Positions 4,412 to 38,096 of a stretch of 64,000 nt of DNA are shown piece by piece (the first letter of the stretch is position 1; each line of letters opens with the position of its first letter). The translations under genes and the position numbers were made by a program. The DNA is from Acutalibacteraceae bacterium (GTDB lineage Bacteria > Bacillota > Clostridia > Oscillospirales > Acutalibacteraceae), in contig JAZRPC010000078.1 of the NCBI GenBank assembly GCA_045649005.1, positions 7,393 to 71,392 of the forward strand, given 5' to 3'. The notes under the pieces are model-generated. The model ran no database searches and was not told the DNA's origin. It saw only the letters and a program-made list of their open reading frames with translations.

Positions 4412-5341
4412 ATGTTACAAAAAGTAAATTCAAAAAGCTTGTTTTCATCACTTTTGATGATTCTTGCCGCATTTATATGGGGCACGGCATTTGTTGCCCA
4501 AAGCACCGGTCTTGAAAAAATCGGTAATTTCACTTTTCTTGCATTCAGGTCATATCTTGCGGTAATTGTTCTTTTGCCTGTTTCATTTATTATTTATAAA
4601 AACAATAAGAAAAGGGTAGGTAACGGGGAGCATAATCAAAATAAAACGTTTATTTCAAAAAAACTGATAATTGGTGCATTTCTTTGCGGAATTGCGCTTT
4701 GTCTTGCTTCTGCTTCGCAGCAATACGGAATTGTTCTTTCAGGTGTGGGTAAATCGGGCTTTCTGACTACGCTTTATATTCTTATGGTGCCGATTATCGG
4801 TTTGTTTTTAAAGAAAAAGGTCAAGCCCGTTCTGTGGCTGTGTATTGCTATTGCACTTTGCGGTATGTATTTTCTTTGCGTAACCGAAACCGGCAGAATA
4901 ACCGTTGGCGATGCGCTGCTTATTCTTTGCGCCTTTCTTTTTGCGGTGCAGATAATGATAGTTGACCATTTTGTGAAGTTCGTTGACGGTGTTCGCTTGT
5001 CTTTGGTTCAGTTTGCAGTAACCGCAGTTATTTCAACAATATGTATGTTCGCCTTTGAAAGCCCCGATATTGAAGCCATAAAAAGTGCGTGGGTTTCAAT
5101 TTTTTATGCCGGTGTGCTGTCATCGGGCGTGGCTTTCACCTTGCAGATTGTTGCACAGAAAAACCTCAACCCGACGGTTGCAAGCCTTTTAATGAGTCTT
5201 GAGTCGGTTTTTGCCGTTCTTGCGGGTGCGGTCTTCGGCGAAAGACTTTCTGCAAACGAGATTTTCGGTTGCGTTCTTGTGTTTGTTGCAATAATACTTG
5301 CACAGCTTCCTGTTGAAAAACTATTAAAAAAGAAAAAATAA
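4412..5341 (+). CDS. DMT (EamA) family transporter
   Basis: 309 aa, about 10 TM segments in two EamA-like halves, with a typical N-terminus ...AAFIWGTAFVAQ... Confidence 0.85.
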   Translation: MLQKVNSKSLFSSLLMILAAFIWGTAFVAQSTGLEKIGNFTFLAFRSYLAVIVLLPVSFIIYKNNKKRVGNGEHNQNKTFISKKLIIGAFLCGIALCLASASQQYGIVLSGVGKSGFLTTLYILMVPIIGLFLKKKVKPVLWLCIAIALCGMYFLCVTETGRITVGDALLILCAFLFAVQIMIVDHFVKFVDGVRLSLVQFAVTAVISTICMFAFESPDIEAIKSAWVSIFYAGVLSSGVAFTLQIVAQKNLNPTVASLLMSLESVFAVLAGAVFGERLSANEIFGCVLVFVAIILAQLPVEKLLKKKK

Positions 5342-28082: not shown

Positions 28083-28371
28083 AATAGCCAATAAAAAAGC
28101 CCTGAGATTCGAAAATCTCAGGGACGAATTTTTAAAAAATCCGTGGTACCACCCCGGTTACTGACAAAGGTCAGTCACTCATTAGGACTCTTAATTAAGT
28201 CTGTAGCCATGGTAACGGGGCCGCCGTAACTCCTTACACGAGGTGTCGGTTGGGGAGCTCTGCTCCGGAACGAGACCGAATTTTTGCAACGCACCGACTC
28301 ACAGCAACCGTCGGCTCTCTGAAACGTGAAACCAAAAACACGTAATTCCTTCATCGCATTTGAAAAATATT
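28083..28371 (-). promoter_or_regulatory. T-box leader, specifier read as CUC (Leu)
   Basis: Read on the minus strand: K-turn GCGAUGAAGGAA...UUCCGGAGCA and the AGAGAG bulge. The distal loop is GGUUGCUGUGAG. Specifier CUC followed by a purine immediately precedes the lower helix (28272-28274). The T-box sequence is GGGGUGGUACCACGG (28141-28155). The terminator is cccugagauu/aaucucaggg plus U6 (28083-28113). Confidence 0.85.
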
Positions 28372-28484: not shown

Positions 28485-28766
28485 TGAAAATATCACAAAT
28501 AAAAGCTGTGACGAAGACGGTTGAAAATTACAACTTCCAGAGAGTCGGCGGTTGCTGCGAGCCGATAGCTTGTGTTTTCAAAACCTATCACTTCTGAGCT
28601 GAAGGTCCGAAAAATTTTTTTAGTAGGCGCCTTCCGAGAATGCTGCGTTAGTGCAACGGGGTTGTTGGACTCCTGAGTGGCAATTTTATTGCAATTTGAG
28701 TGGTACCGCGGATTAATTTTCGTCTCAAAGTAAAACCAAAGGGTTTTGTTTTGGGGCGTTTTTTAT
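28485..28766 (+). promoter_or_regulatory. T-box leader, specifier read as AUC (Ile)
   Basis: K-turn GCUGUGACGAAG...CUUCUGAGC, AGAGAG, distal loop GGUUGCUGCGA. AUC followed by A lies directly 5' of the lower-helix strand CUUC (28587-28590). The T-box sequence is AAUUUGAGUGGUACCGCG (28694-28710). The terminator stem is 28721-28758 plus U6. Confidence 0.85.
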
Positions 28767-28807
28767 TTGTGAGTTTTTGATAATGCTTTATGAAGGAAGG
28801 AATCATT

Positions 28808-31081
28808 ATGCAGAACAATTCAGTTACAAACAAGCTTGCAGAGGTCGCAAAGCGTATTGGTGAACTCCGTGACATTTACGGCTTTTCTGTTAAGGAAATG
28901 GCTGAAAAAACCGAACTCACATTGGAGGAATATCTCTCTTTTGAACAAGCAAAAGAGGATTTGCCCTTCTCTTTTATTCACAAATGTGCTCTTGCTTTTG
29001 ACGTTGAAATAACAGACCTTCTTGAGGGTCAGAGTGCAAAGCTCACAACATACAACGTAACACGTAGGGGAAAGGGTCAGACAACAGCTAATGAAGATGG
29101 TATTCTGATTCAGAATCTTGCACCTAAGTTCAGAAATAAGCTTGCAAATCCCTATTGGGTTAAATATGAATACAGAAGCGAGCTTCAGTCTATGCCCATT
29201 GAGCTTGCAACTCACTCGGGTCAGGAGTTTGACCTTGTTATCAAGGGCTCCCTTAAAGTTCAGATTGGTGAGCATACAGAAATTCTTCACGAGGGTGACA
29301 GCATTTTCTACAAAAGCTCAATTCCTCACGGTATGATCGCTGTTAATGGCGAGGATTGTCTTTTTCTTGCTATGGTTATGGCTGAGGATGAAGAGGTTGC
29401 AGACACAAATATGAACGCTGTCAGCGTTGCAGACACCACGAAGAGAATCCCTCTCATCTGCGACAAATTCATTAAAACAACCGAGGATGAGAACGGTGTT
29501 TGCACCGGTATAGATTTCGAAAACGAAGATGAATTCAACTTTGCTTTCGACGTTGTTGACGAAATCGGCAGACAGTATCCTGAAAAGCTTGCTATGCTTC
29601 ATATTGCAGACGATATGACTGAGCACCGTTTTACCTTCAAGGATATTAAAGAGGGTTCATCACAGGCGGCAAACTATTTCAAATCCTTGGGCATCAAAAA
29701 GGGTGACAGAGTTCTTCTTGTTCTCAAGCGTAACTATCAGTTCTGGTTGGCAATTCTCGGTCTTCATAAGCTTGGTGCAGTTGCAATCCCCGCAACAAAT
29801 CAGCTTGTTGTTCATGATTATGAATACCGCTTCAATGCCGCAGGTGTTTCCGCTGTTGTTGTAACCGCCGACGGTGTTGCAACCGATTACATCGACGAGG
29901 CTCAGAAAAATTGCCCCACTCTTAAAACAAAAATCGTTGCCAACGGCAAAAAAGAGGGTTGGCATTGCTTTGATGAAGAATATGCTCTCTTCAGCCGCCG
30001 ATTTGTCCGTGCTGAGGATGCACCCTGTGGTAACGACCCCATGATTATGTTCTTCACATCCGGCACAACAGGCTACCCGAAAATCGCAACCCATTCCCAT
30101 AAATATCCCTTGGGTCATTTTCTTACAGCTAAATACTGGCATTGTGTTGAACGTGACGGAATCCATTTCACAATTTCCGAAACGGGTTGGGGTAAGGCTC
30201 TTTGGGGCAAGCTCTACGGACAATGGCTTTGCGAGGGTGCAGTTTTCGTTTATGACTTTGAACGCTTTGATGCTTCAAAGATTCTTCCTATGTTTGCAAA
30301 GTACAATATCACAACCTTCTGTGCACCCCCCACAATGTACAGAATGCTTATAAAACAAGATATTTCACAGTATGATTTGTCATCAATAAAGCACGCCACA
30401 ACAGCGGGTGAGGCTCTTAACCCCGAGGTTTTCAAGCAGTTTGAAAAAGCAACAGGTCTCAGAATCCACGAGGGCTTCGGTCAGACTGAAACAACTCTTT
30501 CAATCGCAAACTTCAAAGGCACTAAAATTAAAATCGGAGCTATGGGTCAACCCACACCTCTTTATGATATCGATATAGTTGACCCCGACGGCAGACCCGT
30601 TGCCGACGGCGAAACAGGCGAAATTGTTGTTCATACTGACGGCAAGATTCCCTGCGGTCTTTTCCTTGGTTATTATAACGACCAAGAGAAAACAGACGAG
30701 GTGTGGCACGATGGTCTTTACCACACAGGTGACACCGCATGGCGTGATGAGGACGGTTATCTCTGGTACGTTGGTCGTGTCGATGACGTTATCAAATCAT
30801 CCGGCTACCGCATCGGACCATTCGAAATCGAAAATGTTATTATGGAGCTCCCTTATGTTCTTGAGTGTGGTGTTTCTGCCGCTCCCGATGAGGTGAGGGG
30901 TCAGGTTGTTAAAGCAAGCATTGTTCTGACCCCCGGCACAGAAGGAACAGAAGAACTCAAGAAAGAGATTCAGAAATATGTAAAGGAGCATACAGCACCT
31001 TACAAATATCCCAGAATCGTTGTTTTCCGTGATGAGCTTCCTAAGACAATCAGCGGCAAAATCATAAGAAATAAGCTTTGA
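28808..31081 (+). CDS. fusion protein: XRE-type HTH plus cupin plus AMP-forming (medium-chain type) acyl-CoA synthetase
   Basis: ATG at 28808 follows a GGAAGG RBS. The HTH_3-like N-terminus is LRDIYGFSVKEMAEKTELTLEEYLSFE. The cupin motif is HSGQEFDLVIKGSLKVQIGEH...GDSIFY...PHG. The ACS body has FFTSGTTGYPK, GFGQTE, YHTGD, GRVDDVIKSSGYRIGPFEIE and PKTISGKI. Confidence 0.85.
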   Translation: MQNNSVTNKLAEVAKRIGELRDIYGFSVKEMAEKTELTLEEYLSFEQAKEDLPFSFIHKCALAFDVEITDLLEGQSAKLTTYNVTRRGKGQTTANEDGILIQNLAPKFRNKLANPYWVKYEYRSELQSMPIELATHSGQEFDLVIKGSLKVQIGEHTEILHEGDSIFYKSSIPHGMIAVNGEDCLFLAMVMAEDEEVADTNMNAVSVADTTKRIPLICDKFIKTTEDENGVCTGIDFENEDEFNFAFDVVDEIGRQYPEKLAMLHIADDMTEHRFTFKDIKEGSSQAANYFKSLGIKKGDRVLLVLKRNYQFWLAILGLHKLGAVAIPATNQLVVHDYEYRFNAAGVSAVVVTADGVATDYIDEAQKNCPTLKTKIVANGKKEGWHCFDEEYALFSRRFVRAEDAPCGNDPMIMFFTSGTTGYPKIATHSHKYPLGHFLTAKYWHCVERDGIHFTISETGWGKALWGKLYGQWLCEGAVFVYDFERFDASKILPMFAKYNITTFCAPPTMYRMLIKQDISQYDLSSIKHATTAGEALNPEVFKQFEKATGLRIHEGFGQTETTLSIANFKGTKIKIGAMGQPTPLYDIDIVDPDGRPVADGETGEIVVHTDGKIPCGLFLGYYNDQEKTDEVWHDGLYHTGDTAWRDEDGYLWYVGRVDDVIKSSGYRIGPFEIENVIMELPYVLECGVSAAPDEVRGQVVKASIVLTPGTEGTEELKKEIQKYVKEHTAPYKYPRIVVFRDELPKTISGKIIRNKL

Positions 31082-31202
31082 TAAATCACGAATCAGAGCA
31101 TTTACTCACCTTGCAGTACCTTTGTACAGCTTCGGTTCATAAATAACTCCGATTCATCGATTTCTCTCTGCTTACAATTTGCTATAAATTATAATAAAAA
31201 AC

Positions 31203-31231
31203 TTGACATTTACCTTATATTATGGTATCTT
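31203..31231 (+). promoter_or_regulatory. probable sigma-A promoter of the second plus-strand T-box operon
   Basis: TTGACA (31203-31208), 17-nt spacer ending TGg, and a weak -10 TATCTT (31226-31231). Confidence 0.45.
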
Positions 31232-31239
31232 TGAGGAAA

Positions 31240-31509
31240 TTGAATAAAAAGGCGTTGAAGAAAAGGGCGCAATCATTTCACCTTGCAGAGAAGTGGCGGT
31301 TGGTGCAAGCCACAGGTTGAGAGATTGATGTTTGTAGTTTCCGAGCCGGGAGGAAGAACAGCTTTCGCTTAGTAGAACCTCTCCGTGATTGCTGCGTAAA
31401 GGCATAGAAGTTGTTGGACTTCGAGAGAGGCAGTTTAAACTGCAATTTGAGTGGTACCGCGGGTATATTTTTACTCGTCTCAAAGAATATCTTTGGGACG
31501 AGTTTTTTA
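31240..31509 (+). promoter_or_regulatory. T-box leader, specifier read as GUA (Val)
   Basis: K-turn GGCGUUGAAGAAA...UUUCCGAGCC, AGAGA, distal loop GGUUGGUGCAA. GUA followed by G lies directly 5' of the lower-helix strand UUUC (31334-31337). The T-box sequence is AAUUUGAGUGGUACCGCG (31445-31461). The terminator is cucgucucaaag/cuuugggacgag (31474-31502) plus U6. Confidence 0.8.
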
Positions 31510-31539
31510 TTGTGTCCCTACAAAAACGGAGGAAAGATT

Positions 31540-33834
31540 ATGGACAAAATCACCGGTCTTGATTTTAAAATCAAGGAGATGGCTGCCCGTATTCGGGAAT
31601 TGCGTGAAATTGAGGGCTACACCACAGCCGAGATGGCTTCAAAAACGGGTGTTGCCGAAAGTGAATACATTGCTTGCGAAAATGGTGAAAGCGATCTTAA
31701 CTTTGCATTCATTTATCGTTGTGCACTTGCGTTCAATGTTGATGTTTCAAGCATCATAGAGGGTAGCACACCCAAGCTCACAAACTACGTTTTCACAAAA
31801 GCGGGTAAAGGGCAGAAGATTGAAAAAGCTCACGGAATGACTTATTTCAACCTTGCTTCAAAATTCAAAAATAAAATTGCCGAGCCTCTTTTTGTTGAGG
31901 CTACATACAGCGAAGAAAATCAGAATAAAGATATTGAGCTCACTTCTCACGACGGTCAGGAGCTTGACATTGTTGTTGAAGGTAAGCTGAAGGTTCAGGT
32001 GGGTGAGCACTCAGAGATTCTCGGCCCCGGTGACAGCATCTATTATGATTCTCTCACCCCTCACGGTATGATTGCTGTTGACGGTAAGGATTGTACCTTC
32101 TACGCTATCGTTCTTAATCCGTCGGGTGAGCCTATCCCTGAGCTTCAGCACGTGAAGACTGAGGAGTATAAAGAACCTGTCAAGGTTAAAGAGGATAAAA
32201 AAGAAAGAATTTATCATAAATTCATTGATGTTGAGCGTAACGAAAAAGGTACACCCACATCAATCAAATTTAAAAATACAGAAAACTTCAACTTTGCATA
32301 TGACCTTATTGATGCTCTCGCAGACAGGGAGCCCGATAAATTGGCAATGCTTCATATTGCAAGAGATAAGACCGAAAGAAGATTCACTTTTAAGGATATG
32401 AAGCGTGGCTCCGCTCAGGCGGCGAACTACTTTAAATCCTTGGGCATCAAAAAGGGCGACAGGGTTATGCTCATACTCAAGCGCCATTACCAGTATTGGT
32501 TTGCAATGCTCGGTCTTAATAAATTGGGTGCTATCGGTATACCTGCTCCCAACCAGTTGCAGGAGCACGACCTTGAATATCGTTTCCAGGCTGCGGGTAT
32601 CAAGGCAATTATCTGCACAACAGACGGCGACGTTGCAAATCAGGTTGATATGGCGGCTGAAAAGTGCCCCGACCTTAAAATCAAAATCGCAGTTGGCGAA
32701 GAACGTGACGGTTGGAGAAATTACGACGAAGAAAGTAAGCTCTTCAGCTCCCATTACGAAAGGGGCGAAAATGCTCCTGGTGGCGACGATTTGATGCTTA
32801 TGTTCTTCACATCGGGCACAACAGGCTACCCCAAAATTGCCGCACATAGCTACACATACGCTCTCGGTCATTTCCACACAGCCAAATATTGGCATAATGT
32901 TGACCCCGACGGCCTTCATTTCACAATTTCTGACACAGGCTGGGCAAAGTCTATGTGGGGCAAATTCTACGGCCAATGGCTTTGCGAAGCGGCTCTTTTC
33001 GTTTACGACTTTGACCGCTTTGATGCAGCAGACATTCTTCCCATGTTTGCAAAACACAACATCACAACGTTCTGTGCACCGCCTACAATGCTCAGAATGA
33101 TGATAAAACAAGATATTTCAAAATACGATTTCTCTTCCGTTAAGCATATGACAACAGCGGGCGAGGCTCTTAACCCCGAGGTTTATCGTCAATTCGAAAA
33201 GGCAACAGGCCTCCAGATTCTCGAAGGCTTTGGTCAGACTGAAAGCACAATGATTATCGGTAATATGACAGGCGCACCCCACAAAATCGGTTCTATGGGT
33301 AAACCTGCTCCCATTTATGATGTTTGCCTTGTTGATGCAGACGGCAACAAAGTTAATGTCGGTGAAAATGGTGAAATCGTTGTCAACGTAAAAGATGGCG
33401 CTCCCTGTGGTCTCTTCAAGGGCTACTATAACGACGAAGAAAAAACCAAAGAGGTTTGGCACGACGGCTACTATCATACAGGTGACGTTGCCTGGATGGA
33501 TGAAGACGGCTTCTATTGGTATGTTGGTCGTGTGGATGACGTTATTAAATCCTCAGGCTATCGTATAGGTCCATTTGAAATCGAAAGCGTTATTATGGAG
33601 CTTCCCTACGTTCTTGAGTGCGGCGTTTCTGCTGCTCCTGATGAAGTCAGAGGACAGGTTGTTAAAGCAAGCATAGTTCTTGTTCCCGGAACAGAGGGTA
33701 CGGAAGAACTCAAAAAAGAGATTCAACAGTACGTTAAGGAGAAAACTGCTCCTTATAAATATCCCCGAATCGTTGTATTCCGTGATGAATTGCCAAAAAC
33801 AACCAGTGGTAAGATTCAGCGAAATAAATTATAA
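31540..33834 (+). CDS. fusion protein: XRE-type HTH plus cupin plus AMP-forming acyl-CoA synthetase (tandem paralog of 28808-31081)
   Basis: ATG at 31540 follows a GGAGGAAAG RBS, and the domain order is the same. The last 101 residues differ from the paralog at only 6 positions. In a 56-residue HTH segment, 26 residues are identical. Confidence 0.85.
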   Translation: MDKITGLDFKIKEMAARIRELREIEGYTTAEMASKTGVAESEYIACENGESDLNFAFIYRCALAFNVDVSSIIEGSTPKLTNYVFTKAGKGQKIEKAHGMTYFNLASKFKNKIAEPLFVEATYSEENQNKDIELTSHDGQELDIVVEGKLKVQVGEHSEILGPGDSIYYDSLTPHGMIAVDGKDCTFYAIVLNPSGEPIPELQHVKTEEYKEPVKVKEDKKERIYHKFIDVERNEKGTPTSIKFKNTENFNFAYDLIDALADREPDKLAMLHIARDKTERRFTFKDMKRGSAQAANYFKSLGIKKGDRVMLILKRHYQYWFAMLGLNKLGAIGIPAPNQLQEHDLEYRFQAAGIKAIICTTDGDVANQVDMAAEKCPDLKIKIAVGEERDGWRNYDEESKLFSSHYERGENAPGGDDLMLMFFTSGTTGYPKIAAHSYTYALGHFHTAKYWHNVDPDGLHFTISDTGWAKSMWGKFYGQWLCEAALFVYDFDRFDAADILPMFAKHNITTFCAPPTMLRMMIKQDISKYDFSSVKHMTTAGEALNPEVYRQFEKATGLQILEGFGQTESTMIIGNMTGAPHKIGSMGKPAPIYDVCLVDADGNKVNVGENGEIVVNVKDGAPCGLFKGYYNDEEKTKEVWHDGYYHTGDVAWMDEDGFYWYVGRVDDVIKSSGYRIGPFEIESVIMELPYVLECGVSAAPDEVRGQVVKASIVLVPGTEGTEELKKEIQQYVKEKTAPYKYPRIVVFRDELPKTTSGKIQRNKL

Positions 33835-33857
33835 TGTATAAAAAGAAGGTGAAAAAG

Positions 33858-34520
33858 ATGCAAAGTAAACGAATGACCCTTTTTGCAGGGCACTACGGTA
33901 GCGGCAAAACAAATATTGCCGTTAACTACGCTTTGTATCTTAAAAGCCTTGGCGAAAACGTCGTTATTGCTGACCTTGATATCGTTAATCCCTATTTCAG
34001 AACACGAGACAGTCTTGAGGATTTGAACAAAGCAGGAATCAAATTGATTTCCTCAGCGTTCGCAAACTCAAACGTTGATTTACCTGCTTTGCCGCAGGAT
34101 GTTTATTCTCTTCTTGACAAACGTGAAGAAAAGGCGATAATGGATATTGGCGGTGATGACCGTGGTGCTTACGCTTTGGGTAGATATGCAGACGCTATTA
34201 AAGATGAAAACGACTATGAAATGCTTTTCGTTTTCAATAAATATCGTCCGCTAACACCCGATGCAGAATCTGCTTTTGAAATAATGCAGGAAATTGAAGC
34301 GGCGTGCAAGGTTAAATTCACCGCAATAGTCAATAACTCCAACCTTGGTGAAAGCACCACGGCAGAGGATGTTTTAAATTCGGTTGACAGTGCCGAAAAA
34401 TTGTCTGAATTAACAGGCTTGCCTGTTAAAATGACAACTGTCACAGAAAATTTAGTTAATAATCTCAACGGAAAAATTTCAAATCTGTTTCCGCTGACTT
34501 TACAAAAAAAGATAATTTAG
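33858..34520 (+). CDS. P-loop NTPase (MinD/CooC-like SIMIBI fold), function unknown
   Basis: Walker A GHYGSGKT and Walker-B-like VVIADLD. The ATG at 33858 follows a GAAGGTG RBS (track ORF starts at 33834). Confidence 0.6.
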   Translation: MQSKRMTLFAGHYGSGKTNIAVNYALYLKSLGENVVIADLDIVNPYFRTRDSLEDLNKAGIKLISSAFANSNVDLPALPQDVYSLLDKREEKAIMDIGGDDRGAYALGRYADAIKDENDYEMLFVFNKYRPLTPDAESAFEIMQEIEAACKVKFTAIVNNSNLGESTTAEDVLNSVDSAEKLSELTGLPVKMTTVTENLVNNLNGKISNLFPLTLQKKII

Positions 34521-34531
34521 GAGGCAGAAAA

Positions 34532-34738
34532 ATGGCAAAAGTAACATTCGCAGAAAATGTTTGCAAGGGTTGCGGTTTGTGCGTAACTGCTTGTCCCAAG
34601 AAAATTGTGGAACTTGATTCTGCAAAGCTTAACGCAAAAGGTCATCATCCTGCACATTGTATCGATGATAGCAAGTGTATCGGTTGCGCATTTTGTGCAA
34701 CAATGTGCCCCGACTGCGCTATAACTGTTGAAAGGTAA
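34532..34738 (+). CDS. 2x[4Fe-4S] ferredoxin, delta-subunit type of 2-oxoacid:ferredoxin oxidoreductases
   Basis: 68 aa with two CxxCxxCxxxCP motifs (CKGCGLCVTACP, CIGCAFCATMCP). It lies immediately upstream of a KorA/VorB-like start. Confidence 0.8.
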   Translation: MAKVTFAENVCKGCGLCVTACPKKIVELDSAKLNAKGHHPAHCIDDSKCIGCAFCATMCPDCAITVER

Positions 34739-34748
34739 GGTGAAATAA

Positions 34749-35348
34749 ATGGGTGAGAAAGTTTTAATGAAAGGTAATGAGGCTATCGCCGAGGCTGCAA
34801 TCAGAGCAGGTTGTATGCATTATTTCGGTTACCCCATTACTCCCCAGACAGAAATTGCCGCATATATGGCAAAAAGAATGCCCAAAGTTGGTGGCGGTCA
34901 GGAGCAGAACGTTCACTCCGGCACGGAGGCAACCCCCGCAATATTCTCATTCGGTGCTGCCGCAAATGCCGCAGGCGACGTGGCTGCAAACTCTGCCTAT
35001 GTTGCAGAACTAAAAAAACAATTGTTGCAGGGCATAGAAAATATATCTTGCGTAACAATAAACTCTCCGGAGGATGCAATCCCCTATATTCTCAACATTT
35101 CAATCCTCGGCCTACCCAGCCAGCCCATTGTTAATTTTATGAGTGACAAGGGCATTTACATTTCCGCAGGCTCTGCTTGCAAAATGGGTCACAGAAGCCC
35201 TGTGCTCACAGCTATGGGTCTTTCGCCCGAGGTTACAGACAGCGCTGTGAGAATCAGCCTGAGCAGATACAACACACCTGAAGAGATTGATTATCTAATA
35301 AGCGCAATTACAGAAGCCGCTCAAAAATACGGCAAAAAACAAAGGTGA
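34749..35348 (+). pseudogene. chimeric ORF: N-terminal ~50 aa of a 2-oxoacid:ferredoxin oxidoreductase alpha subunit fused in frame to the C-terminal ~150 aa of cysteine desulfurase NifS/IscS
   Basis: Residues 1-49 ([43 protein letters not shown]) are a typical KorA/VorB N-terminus. From [14 protein letters not shown] onward the sequence is NifS-like ([20 protein letters not shown]...[15 protein letters not shown]). The junction is at GGT GGC GGT (34890-34898). The PLP-lysine region of NifS and all TPP/CoA domains of the oxidoreductase are absent. Confidence 0.75.
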
Positions 35349-35352
35349 GAAA

Positions 35353-36540
35353 ATGAAAGAAATTATTCTTATAAAAGATGGTGAGCTTGCTCTCAAGGGT
35401 CTTAACAGGTCAACCTTTGAGGATATGCTCGTTAAAAACATACGTTGGCGCATCAAGCCCTTTGGCTCATTCCAATTCAAAAAATCGCAGTCAACCGTCA
35501 CGGTTACTCCTCTTGACGAAAACGCCGACCTTGATGCGGCGGCTGATGAAATTTCAAGAGTATTCGGTATTGCAGGCTATTCAAGAGCCGCAGTCGCCGA
35601 AAAGGATATTGACAAAATCCTCGAGCTTGCGCCCGTGTATCTCAAGGACCAGCTCGAAGAAGCTGAAACCTTCAAGGTTGAGGCAAAACGAAGCGACAAG
35701 AAATTTCCCCTTACCTCACCCGAAATCTCGGCGATGGTGGGTGGCAAAATTCTTGAAAGCTTCCCCCACCTTCGTGTTAACGTCAAGAATCCCGACATTA
35801 CCGTTACGGTTGAAATCCGTGATGAAGCATATATCCGTGGCAACCAATTAAAGGGTGCGGGCGGTATGCCTGTTGGTTCATCCGGCAGGGGACTTCTTCT
35901 TATCTCCGGCGGTATCGACAGCCCCGTTGCAGGCTATATGATGGCAAAACGAGGAATCGACCTTGTGGGTATCCACTTTGCATCACCACCCTACACCTCG
36001 CTTCGCTCCGAGCAAAAGGTTCACGACCTTCTTTCAAAGGTTGCACGTCACAGCGGCAGAATTTGGCTCCACACAGTCCCCTTCACAGAAATCCAGGAAA
36101 TGATTCGTGAAAAATGCCCCGAGGAGTATTTCACAATTATTATGCGCCGTTTTATGATGCGTATTTCTTGTATGCTTGCAGAAACCACCGATTGTCACGC
36201 TCTTATAACAGGCGAAAGCGTTGCACAGGTTGCAAGCCAGACAATGCTTGCTCTCGGTTGCACCGACGCAGTTGCAAACCAGCCCGTATTCAGACCGTGC
36301 ATCGGCATGGATAAAGAAGAAATTATCCGAATTTCAAGAAAAATCGAAACCTTCGATATTTCCATACAGCCCTTTGAGGACTGTTGCACAGTCTTCACAC
36401 CCAAGCACCCCAAAACGAAGCCTCATCTCCCCGACATTGAGGCGGCTGAAAGCGTGCTTGATATTGAGGGGCTTTGCAAACGTGCCTTTGAGGGCATCAC
36501 AAGAATAGCTATCAATTCAAGCGGTGTTGAAAATGTCTGA
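35353..36540 (+). CDS. thiI: tRNA 4-thiouridine(8) synthase ThiI
   Basis: 395 aa with a THUMP-like N-terminal region and the PP-loop SGGIDSPVA. There is no rhodanese domain, which is the Firmicute type. Confidence 0.9.
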   Translation: MKEIILIKDGELALKGLNRSTFEDMLVKNIRWRIKPFGSFQFKKSQSTVTVTPLDENADLDAAADEISRVFGIAGYSRAAVAEKDIDKILELAPVYLKDQLEEAETFKVEAKRSDKKFPLTSPEISAMVGGKILESFPHLRVNVKNPDITVTVEIRDEAYIRGNQLKGAGGMPVGSSGRGLLLISGGIDSPVAGYMMAKRGIDLVGIHFASPPYTSLRSEQKVHDLLSKVARHSGRIWLHTVPFTEIQEMIREKCPEEYFTIIMRRFMMRISCMLAETTDCHALITGESVAQVASQTMLALGCTDAVANQPVFRPCIGMDKEEIIRISRKIETFDISIQPFEDCCTVFTPKHPKTKPHLPDIEAAESVLDIEGLCKRAFEGITRIAINSSGVENV

Positions 36541-37027
36541 AACTGAACTTATTAATCTTGCCGAAAAGGCGGTAAAAAAGCTTTCTGAAAAAAGCAAGAC
36601 TCTTGCCCTTGCCGAGTCCTGCACGGGCGGTCTTGTCAGCAAGCTCATAACCGACGTCAGCGGTGCATCTGCCGTTTATATGGGTGGCGTGTGCTCATAC
36701 TCAAACTCGGTTAAAATGAAAATTCTCGGTGTTAAAGAAGCCACCCTTTCAGAGCACGGTGCCGTAAGCGAACAGGTCGCCGTGCAAATGGCACAGGGTG
36801 TCAGAGTGGCACTTGGTGCAGATATCGGCATTGGCATCACAGGCATTGCCGGTCCCCTCTCAGACAACACCCAAAAGCCGGTTGGGCTCATATACGTCTG
36901 CATTTCAGACGGTGAAACCACAACAACCCGTGAATTACGGAACAATTTCACAAACGACATAAGAACTAACAACAGATTATCTGCCGCTAAAACGGCATTG
37001 AGTCTATTAGGTGATATAAATGAGTAA
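36533..37027 (+). CDS. CinA-family nicotinamide-nucleotide amidohydrolase domain protein (PncC-like)
   Basis: The CinA C-terminal domain pattern is present (LALAESCTGGL, GGVCSYSN, GITGIAGP). The ATG at 36533 overlaps the thiI stop. Confidence 0.8.
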   Translation: MSETELINLAEKAVKKLSEKSKTLALAESCTGGLVSKLITDVSGASAVYMGGVCSYSNSVKMKILGVKEATLSEHGAVSEQVAVQMAQGVRVALGADIGIGITGIAGPLSDNTQKPVGLIYVCISDGETTTTRELRNNFTNDIRTNNRLSAAKTALSLLGDINE

Positions 37028-38096
37028 GAAAAGCAAAAACGAACCCGTTTCGGATTTTCAGTATTTCAAGGGTGCTGAAGAAACTGTTTTCAGAACAGAC
37101 GAAACGCAGAAAAAAGAGGTAATAAAACACCTCAAAGCAAAAAAACGCAAAAAAACATTTCTGACTGCCCTCAGTTATATTTTGGCTGCAGTTGTTGTTG
37201 TATCGGGCTTCTTTGTTGGTAAAAAGGGCATTGAAAAATACCTTGTTCTTAAACAGGAAACCGACTTTTACGATTCAGCAGTCATCCCCGATGACGTAAA
37301 AAAAGAGCTTGATACCCTGAGCGAGGCTGAACAGTGGGCGTACCTTTACGAAAAATACCCCGAGCTTCTCGACGTTAAGTTCCCCACAGGCATCCTTTAC
37401 GATTATGCCCTGTATTATGCTAAAAACCCTCAGACGGTCGGCTACCTTAAAATCGACGGCACAAAGGTGGACACACCCGTTGTGCAGGCAGATAATGACA
37501 AATACTATCTCCGCCACGACTTCAACGGCAAATCAACAAGCTACGGTGCAGTTTTCGCATCTTATATAGACGATTTTCAGCCCTTTGACAGAAACACTCT
37601 TCTATACGGTCACAATATGTTTGACGGTGAGCGTTTCGCCGCCCTTGCCAACTACAAGAGCATGGATTATTTCAAAAAGCACCCCATTATTCAGTTTGAC
37701 ACGCTTTTTGAAAAGCATAAATGGAAGGTTTGTGCAGTAATCCTCACAAACGGCTCCGTTGACAGCAACAACGGCTACTTCTTCGATTTCACGTTTGATA
37801 ATTGCTCAGATGCCTGCTTCGAAGAATACATTGAAGAAATAAACAAGCGCAAGCTTTACGACACAGGTGTTGATATTCTTCCCACAGATAAGCTCCTCAC
37901 TCTTTGCACCTGCACCTATGAATTCGACGATGCAAGACTTCTTGTTATTGCGAGAATGGTGCGTGAGGGTGAATCTGAGGAGGTTGACACAAGTCTTGCA
38001 AGGTTTAAAAAAGACCCTGTGAAATACCCCGAAAGCTATTATGACAATCCTCGTCAGAATCCCTACAAAGACGATAAAAAATTCTATTTATATTAA
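37020..38096 (+). CDS. srtB: class B sortase with a long N-terminal TM-anchored extension
   Basis: TM segment FLTALSYILAAVVVVSGFFV, then sortase B motifs (YYLRHDF, LYGHNM, catalytic TLCTCTY, LLVIARMVR). Confidence 0.8.
   Translation: MSKKSKNEPVSDFQYFKGAEETVFRTDETQKKEVIKHLKAKKRKKTFLTALSYILAAVVVVSGFFVGKKGIEKYLVLKQETDFYDSAVIPDDVKKELDTLSEAEQWAYLYEKYPELLDVKFPTGILYDYALYYAKNPQTVGYLKIDGTKVDTPVVQADNDKYYLRHDFNGKSTSYGAVFASYIDDFQPFDRNTLLYGHNMFDGERFAALANYKSMDYFKKHPIIQFDTLFEKHKWKVCAVILTNGSVDSNNGYFFDFTFDNCSDACFEEYIEEINKRKLYDTGVDILPTDKLLTLCTCTYEFDDARLLVIARMVREGESEEVDTSLARFKKDPVKYPESYYDNPRQNPYKDDKKFYLY

Follow-up and report, generated by a model that had tools for sequence, protein, structure and literature searches.

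A 199-codon vorB–nifS hybrid gene in an Acutalibacteraceae contig most likely reflects a wrong join between two loci of one genome

The closest described counterparts of the hybrid gene analyzed here are misjoined MAG contigs, scars of microhomology-mediated deletion, and the two enzymes that its halves resemble. Misjoined MAG contigs with a break in GC skew (SkewIT, PMC7717575) have a single junction between loci that are separate in all relatives, with disrupted skew at the junction, no independent support for it, and intact flanking genes; a disrupted GC skew is accepted as a sign of misassembly or inversion (PMC7717575). The ORF at positions 34749–35348 (+) of our 64-kb window (the whole stretch of DNA analyzed) is alike in each of these respects, but the overlap between its joined sequences is 7–9 nt, much shorter than the repeats behind the usual graph misjoins. 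Scars of microhomology-mediated (RecA-independent) deletions are similar in that one repeat copy is kept within an in-frame hybrid of two genes; unlike such scars, however, the window joins parents that are not neighbors and have opposite polarity, with a segment between them that would include essential genes, and no pseudogene decay. The first half of the ORF resembles VorB, the alpha subunit of 3-methyl-2-oxobutanoate (2-oxoisovalerate):ferredoxin oxidoreductase (PRK07119), in that residues 1–49 are those of the VorB of a relative (L086) and that ATPase and ferredoxin genes lie upstream, but it has only 49 of approximately 354 residues and lacks PFOR_II, the transketolase C-terminal domain, vorA, and vorC. 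The second half resembles thiI-linked NifS/IscS (TIGR03402/PF00266) in its C-terminal 150 residues with the SAGSAC motif and in the thiI–cinA–sortase order that follows, but it lacks the N-terminal ~226 residues, including the SGHK motif.

The ORF encodes 199 amino acids and sits between a ferredoxin gene (34532–34738, +) and thiI (35353–36540, +). The original prediction had read it as a chimera of a 2-oxoacid oxidoreductase alpha subunit and a cysteine desulfurase, and Pfam, NCBIfam, and tblastn all bore this out: VorB/KorA residues 1–49 are joined in frame to NifS residues ~227–376. Pfam assigned residues 15–72 to POR_N (28 bits) and residues 51–183 to Aminotran_5 (profile positions 244–371 of 371). 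Among the NCBIfam models, the match to VorB (PRK07119) starts at residue 3 (75.1 bits vs. a cut-off of 399), residues 3–50 match PRK08659 (2-oxoacid oxidoreductase alpha), and residues 47–193 match NifS (TIGR03402, profile positions 221–372; 87.1 bits vs. a cut-off of 530.75), so that all NCBIfam scores are well under the full-length cut-offs. When the full-length proteins of relatives were used as tblastn queries, VorB residues 1–49 aligned to 34749–34895 with 100% identity (L086) and NifS residues 226–376 aligned to 34887–35339. The vorB 5′ fragment (34749–34896, +; codons 1–49 of ~354) and the nifS 3′ fragment (34890–35348, +; residues 227–376 of a NifS of 376–377 aa) overlap at the join.

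Neither half is a complete enzyme. A full-length VorB/KorA combines POR_N, PFOR_II, and Transketolase_C over approximately 350 residues, as the 354-aa VorB of the relatives does with all three domains, and the chimera does not reach this composition. The large N-terminal domain and the PLP lysine of NifS/IscS are missing as well; the PLP-lysine motif SGHK, at residue 200 in the full NifS of L081 and L082, has no counterpart in the chimera. The C-terminal SAGSAC catalytic Cys loop, which the prediction had placed in the ORF, is indeed kept, at chimera residue 139 (residue 318 of full NifS). No tblastn match to vorA or vorC was found in the 64-kb window with the L086 VorA and VorC as queries, so that the neighboring subunits of a vor operon are absent from it, and the window contains neither further intact copies of vor or nifS nor the 5′ part of nifS.

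When 5.8 billion proteins were searched, 4,865 hits were obtained, and among the 120 matches listed with domains, the window's own protein was alone in combining PF01855 with PF00266. Conservation of the 199-aa architecture in other genomes, mentioned beforehand as what would mark a real gene, was thus not seen among the hits of this search. Look-ups of the exact proteins (the chimera, ThiI, and the upstream ATPase with 228-aa and 220-aa starts) also gave zero matches. That selection maintains the 199-aa hybrid as a true fusion gene with its own function is an idea to which we give virtually no credence. In its favor are an uninterrupted reading frame, a good ribosome-binding context taken over from vorB, and a NifS C-terminal domain and Cys loop that are kept and show purifying selection relative to orthologues; however, the purifying signal is explained by the fragment having belonged to an intact nifS until now, no homologue of the same architecture occurred among the search hits, and the product is without the PLP lysine, the large domain of NifS, and everything in VorB beyond 49 residues.

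The joint lies where it had been predicted, at codons 48–50 (34890–34898, GGT GGC GGT). DNA comparison with L086, L001, and L081–L085 showed that the string common to the same-species parents, (TT)GGTGGCG at 34888–34896, is either the 7-nt GGTGGCG (34890–34896) or the 9-nt TTGGTGGCG (34888–34896), depending on the nifS allele; loose contig ends of related strains fall at the same place. Across the join point, intact vorB reads ...AAAGTTGGTGGCGT(C/A)TTCCTTCAGGC, and intact nifS, with two alleles, reads ...AAGCCCCAC(GTTTAC/ATCCTT)GGTGGCGGTCAGGAG, which can also be written ..CCCCAC(GTTTAC/ATCCTT)GGTGGCGG. In the shared string originally proposed, GGTGGCGG, the eighth base, G, comes from nifS only. 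Strain polymorphisms touch both edges of the join (GTC/GTA at 34,898 in vorB, and GTTTAC vs. ATCCTT just before 34,888/34,890 in nifS), and the two tips overlap at the join by 10–11 nt with one or two mismatches. The genes neighboring the join are free of frameshifts; the sequence is accurate, and the join is well inside a long contig.

A deletion scar would look like what is seen here, an in-frame joint that retains one copy of a short direct repeat found in both parents, and a true microhomology-mediated deletion, in which the stretch from vorB codon 49 to nifS codon 227 was lost from the chromosome, would also leave the flanks in the orientation observed and would account for vorA, vorC, and the 5′ part of nifS being nowhere in the 64-kb window. 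Such a deletion further implies that the two parents lay in the same orientation on one molecule and flanked a dispensable segment. This was not what the relatives showed.

The related loci came from ruminant and other herbivore gut MAGs labeled Acutalibacteraceae, Oscillospiraceae, or Clostridia. From ~23.3 kb to 34,896, the window is collinear with the vor locus of L001–L009, L086, and L087. The order on this left side is LeuA-like and AP-endonuclease/AMP-binding genes (minus strand), two T-box leaders, two HTH–cupin–acyl-CoA synthetase genes, an ATPase gene, the ferredoxin gene, and vorB. The T-box leader of the operon at 28499–28730 (+) matched Rfam RF00230 with 105.9 bits (gathering score of 93); its specifier reads AUC (Ile) in the alignment, not Val as had been suggested. 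It is followed by the first HTH–cupin–acyl-CoA synthetase fusion gene (28790–31081, +), which is 84–86% identical to and collinear with its relatives, whose orthologues carry the Pfam domains HTH_19, Cupin_2, and AMP-binding; by a second paralogue (31537–33834, +; HTH_19, Cupin_2, AMP-binding, and AMP-binding_C); by a MinD/ParA-like P-loop ATPase gene (33834–34520, +; weak CbiA/ParA Pfam matches), which also lies upstream of the ferredoxin gene and vorB in all relatives; and by the gene for the 68-aa 2x[4Fe-4S] ferredoxin, the delta subunit of the oxidoreductase (Fer4-family Pfam; NCBIfam OGOR_delta/PorD). Linkage of the ATPase, ferredoxin, and vorB genes was seen in L001–L030 (the 30 related GTDB loci examined, of 594 related stretches), apart from three loci whose sequence stops at the ATPase gene or shortly after it and cannot show it. 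The vorB fragment is the final part of the window that is collinear with the vor locus of relatives. After the ferredoxin gene, the relatives continue with vorB (354 aa)–vorA–vorC–ilvE–lytR–sipL–pda–rplS–lepB–ylqF–rnhB: vorA encodes 250 aa (TPP_enzyme_C) and vorC 178 aa (POR), after which come a class-IV aminotransferase (ilvE-like), LytR_cpsA_psr, SipL/LysM, polysaccharide deacetylase, and rplS genes, and then one or more signal peptidases, a YlqF/RsgA-type GTPase, and RNase HII.

From 34,890 rightward, the window is collinear with a separate locus of its closest relatives, L081–L085, whose ThiI is 88–93% identical. The order nifS (376–377 aa)–thiI–cinA–sortase is found in all five, and the full order nifS–thiI–CinA–Sortase–491 aa–epimerase–amylase in L081, L082, L083, and L085. 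The right side is thus in its native context, as originally supposed: thiI (tRNA 4-thiouridine synthase; TIGR00342, 367.6 bits) is adjacent to nifS in each of these genomes, and the collinearity goes on through the cinA-like and sortase-like genes of the window (36524–38096, +). Upstream of the full nifS, the relatives carry a divergent ypeB (446 aa), then genes of 105, 808, and 751 aa, and an acyltransferase gene, with no vor genes up to 8.8 kb upstream. Conversely, none of the window ORFs from 34.9 to 64 kb had a match up to ~9.5 kb downstream of vorB in L001, L003, and L008. The vor and nifS loci are therefore more than ~9–10 kb apart in every relative examined, a lower bound set by the 10-kb flanks compared. 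In other words, each side of the window is collinear up to the breakpoint with a different locus, and the two loci are not adjacent, as in a chimeric contig. No contig of a relative that carries both loci was apparent between the ThiI and ATPase match lists. The vor locus of L086 lies on a 224,635-nt contig with ~88 kb more sequence downstream, and no ThiI cluster on this contig was apparent in the ThiI match list, which is a weak point of evidence.

These comparisons speak against the deletion. In none of the relatives are the partners adjacent; at least 9.5 kb after vorB and at least 8.8 kb before nifS are free of the respective partner, and the further ~88 kb downstream in L086, weakly, points the same way. 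The lost segment would moreover comprise no less than the ~9.5 kb after vorB and begin with ilvE, lytR, rplS, lepB, ylqF, and rnhB. In Bacillus subtilis, several genes of this kind, such as those for RplS, signal peptidase, and the YlqF-type GTPase, are essential or near-essential.

The two sides of the join also differ in replication polarity. On the + strand, all 4-kb windows up to ~34 kb have positive GC skew and all later ones negative GC skew, the cumulative skew reaches its maximum at 34,817, and a two-segment maximum-likelihood change point falls at 34,828 (log-likelihood ratio of 62.8), with an approximate 95% support interval of 34757–35459 that includes the join. The breakpoint thus coincides with a skew discontinuity of the kind seen in chimeric contigs. 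When the GC3 skew was decomposed, its sense-strand component was alike on both sides (−0.21 and −0.24), indicating the same codon habits left and right, and its strand-independent component changed from +0.10 on the left to −0.16 on the right. In the orientation of the window, skew is positive on both sides of vorB in the vor loci of relatives; in their nifS loci, the overall value is negative, as are most 2-kb bins to the left and right of nifS. Neither locus is therefore natively at a polarity switch, and the flip at the join indicates that two oppositely replicated domains have been connected. This opposite polarity rules out that a segment within one replication arm was deleted or tandemly duplicated; the remaining candidates are a misjoin, an intra-arm inversion with the join at one of its ends, and a deletion that spans the terminus. 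The switch by itself is no proof of an artefact, as it is expected in about half of random misjoins.

With a one-arm deletion excluded by the polarity of the flanks, what would be left of the deletion is a version crossing the terminus. This would be very large, and it fits poorly with read depths of related strains that differ by 12–18% between the two sides in three of four metagenome runs. We consider a deletion of any extent very improbable. The original claim that a local microhomology deletion had taken out vorA, vorC, the remainder of vorB, and about two-thirds of nifS does not hold for parents that are non-adjacent and of opposite polarity, and for the same reasons neither the loss of the oxidoreductase by this strain nor the loss of the sulfur donor next to ThiI is warranted.

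A real join could instead mark where a large balanced rearrangement of recent date (an inversion or translocation) has one of its ends, a reading that we regard as unlikely but less so than a deletion. In its most economical form, this would be an intra-arm inversion between oppositely oriented vorB and nifS genes through illegitimate recombination at (TT)GGTGGCG, which would split both genes and leave the reciprocal nifS5′::vorB3′ joint elsewhere in the genome, with the 5′ part of nifS followed by GGTGGCGT(C/A)TTCC as its expected sequence. Several observations agree with it: the join is clean, lies within a long and accurate contig, and is flanked by genes without frameshifts; a microhomology of 7–9 nt is well above that expected by chance for a random junction; an intra-arm event predicts the switch in the sign of GC skew that was observed; no essential gene would be removed; and both sides belong to the same organism according to the co-variation in depth described below. 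Against it, two conserved genes would have been inactivated at once in an event of a rare type, and neither the 12 runs that contain related strains nor the protein and contig collections searched show the join. Large bacterial inversions normally use long inverted repeats, and selection acts against intra-arm inversions that leave genes such as rplS pointing against replication; here, a large block of genes would be turned in this way. If the join is real, it would represent a ruminant-gut Acutalibacteraceae strain with a double knock-out of vorB and the thiI-linked nifS, caught before decay, in which the hit to vorB lies in a T-box-controlled operon for a branched-chain 2-oxoacid:ferredoxin oxidoreductase. 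It would then rank as a curiosity of modest weight: a large, microhomology-mediated rearrangement of a rare kind that knocks out two housekeeping functions in a gut bacterium not yet in culture.

The age of the event can be judged from the nifS remnant. Between 34,896 and 35,345, its comparison with intact nifS from three groups of strains gives 16–18 differing sites, of which 13–14 are synonymous and 2–4 non-synonymous (S = 104 and N = 346 sites), giving a dN/dS of approximately 0.07 relative to the intact orthologues. This low ratio indicates that the fragment has not been evolving as an old pseudogene, and without decay the event must be either very recent or one that never took place in the cell. 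An inversion is accordingly burdened by the demand that it be very recent.

To look at the join in related strains, which are roughly 93–98% identical and are other strains or species rather than the same clone, we compared Logan contigs of 12 runs (at least eight studies; cattle, sheep, and unspecified hosts) across it. No contig across the join was found in these 12 gut-metagenome runs. In all 12, the left contigs lose their match at 34,896 (in some other species at 34,886–34,894) and run on into vorB, their continuation T(C/A)TTCCTTCAGGCTGAAAGTGAAATCGCCG, also given as T(C/A)TTCCTTCAGGC..., encoding VorB ...GG-VFLQAESEIA. The right contigs of the 12 runs gain their match at 34,890 or 34,888 and have nifS sequence ahead of it, ...AAAGCCCCACGTTTAC or ...AAAGCCCCACATCC, encoding NifS ...KPHVY/KPHIL-GGGQE. 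The depths of left and right contigs co-vary (for example, 90/103, 10.8/9.8, 11.4/9.9, 5.8/3.8, 10.5/11.5, and 20–23/22.8), indicating that both halves derive from the same organism and that the join was made within one genome. The right side was 12–18% deeper than the left in three of the four runs mentioned above and 9% shallower in the fourth, which is weak evidence that the loci lie far apart. Divergence from the related strains was 2–8% on the left side and 3.6–4.3% on the right, with no consistent step in identity at the join of the kind that a mix of two different strains would produce.

One run, X3, was particularly informative on the layout of the parents. Its left contig goes on for 803 nt after the join, and 2,569 nt of its right contig precede the join, which suggested a collinear deletion of ~3.3 kb; this was ruled out by the order vorA, vorC, 368-aa gene ... 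rplS in the same run. The X3 contigs downstream of vorB (2,106, 533, 1,016, and 7,267 nt; depth of 86–90) follow the order of L001 past 9 kb, and the X3 nifS contig (8,015 nt; depth of 102.6) does not map to the L001 region downstream of vorB. This layout indicates that the parents are not neighbors even in the nearest strains. The two junction-spanning words that were sampled occurred in no indexed run, the best share of words in indexed runs being 0.53 for the junction stretch and 0.37 over 10 kb. Degenerate patterns for the junction and for its reciprocal both gave 0 matches in the JGI metagenomes, a collection that probably does not contain the strain; the second of these results counts, to that extent, against an inversion as well.

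We conclude that the 199-codon gene is most likely a wrongly joined contig within one genome rather than a biological deletion. Misassembly, which the original prediction had named as the alternative to a deletion scar, is thus the reading favored by synteny, skew, uniqueness, and the absence of decay. On this reading, the vor operon as far as vorB codon 49 would have been fused at the 7–9 nt string to the nifS–thiI locus from nifS codon ~227, the two stretches belonging to the genome of the same organism without being neighbors on its chromosome. A wrong join would explain at once why the sequence is unique, why the parents are not adjacent, why the polarity flips, and why there is no decay, all at no cost to the organism, which presumably still has intact vorBAC and nifS. 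The join was probably made during library preparation or assembly. An overlap of 7–9 nt is too short for a graph misjoin, which calls for a different mechanism: a template switch at the GC-rich microhomology may have produced a chimeric molecule, or two contig tips may have been closed on a short overlap at a place where many strains and species share sequence, with the true continuations of both loci missing or outcompeted during assembly. When a few read pairs link two tips, some assemblers will bridge the gap on an overlap of ~10 nt, even with one or two mismatches. The first 148 nt of vorB are common to many co-occurring strains and species, and depth rises there 3- to 17-fold and Logan unitigs break. 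Together with the polymorphisms at both edges of the join, this shared start marks sites where assembly graphs branch and contigs end.

Some points stand against a wrong join. An overlap of 7–9 nt is far under any de Bruijn k, and a short-read graph assembler would need reads that carry the join; true continuations that are lost or weaker are unusual in the middle of a 72-kb contig, where a real rearrangement would look just so; and a microhomology of 7–9 nt is also typical of illegitimate recombination in vivo.

If the join is an artefact, as judged most likely, it represents no new biological feature; the contig should then be split at 34,888–34,896, the 199-aa fusion protein should be left out of the annotation, and nothing should be inferred for this organism about the loss of the oxidoreductase or of the sulfur donor of ThiI. 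The case would then also serve as a worked example of diagnosing a junction within a long and accurate MAG contig in the absence of reads, through synteny, contigs of related strains from public runs, decomposition of GC3 skew, and the dN/dS of a fragment. Other public assemblies likewise contain chimeric contigs that involve vorB, which speaks for a wrong join here: two of them, L089 and L090, were among the best matches to the VorB N-terminus. L089 is a MEGAHIT k141 contig, a 553-nt "circle" whose first and last 141 nt are identical; in it, vorB leads back into the ferredoxin gene through an 11-nt string common to both, AAGAAAATCGT. L090 is a NODE of 1.6x coverage in which vorB switches to an N6-methylase gene.

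In relatives, the complete operon begins with a T-box leader, which is followed by two fusion proteins of about 760 aa each, combining HTH_19, Cupin_2, and AMP-binding domains, a MinD/ParA-like ATPase, a ferredoxin, vorB, vorA, vorC, and a class-IV aminotransferase. The operon region spans positions 4894–14339 in L086 and 5017–14357 in L087; the matching part of the window is 28790–34896. This arrangement looks like a pathway that would make branched-chain amino acids out of branched-chain fatty acids via reductive carboxylation, turned on by uncharged tRNA. The fusion of a regulator-like HTH-cupin module to an acyl-CoA synthetase is unusual.

The window contains a divergent pair of T-box leaders, at 28499–28730 on the forward strand and 28117–28363 on the reverse strand. 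The original prediction took the forward-strand leader to be a Val T-box; in our reading of the cmscan alignment, the specifier is instead AUC (Ile), followed by A and then the helix CUUC. The reverse-strand leader, with a LeuA/HMGL-like gene downstream, has the specifier CUC (Leu). The two acyl-CoA synthetase paralogues share approximately 63% identity, and the second is preceded by a spacer at 31440–31490. On contigs of related strains, “joints” linking the T-box leader region (window positions 28520–28750) to this spacer were observed, which suggests a common leader or terminator element together with a tandem duplication that confuses assemblies.

Two public-assembly contigs among the best matches to the VorB N-terminus also encode VorB chimeras. 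On the MEGAHIT contig L089 (ENA k141_1038609, positions 1–694), the terminal 141 nt at both ends are identical, making it a 553-nt “circle” in which vorB (at approximately nt 400) rejoins the ferredoxin gene at an 11-nt common string, AAGAAAATCGT; the protein called on it (P0029) is a VorB::ferredoxin chimera. On L090 (ENA NODE_27892, coverage 1.6×, positions 920–1909), the vorB homology stops at 1348 and the ORF then continues as an N6-DNA-methylase (P0034, PF01855+PF02384). Furthermore, nifS was called in two pieces (254 and 123 aa) at positions 2380–3512 of L084, a relative with the nifS–thiI locus (ENA NODE_16717, coverage 1.9×). It is probably split by a frameshift from sequencing error, a reminder that low-coverage assemblies of this kind yield broken nifS calls.

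On the right side of the window (34897–64000), the forward strand carries approximately 84% of the coding sequence, yet its GC skew is negative, and the nifS loci of relatives are likewise mostly forward-coding despite a negative GC skew. Provided that the leading strand is the G-rich one, genes in this block would mostly be oriented head-on to replication, an unexpected arrangement for a Firmicute.
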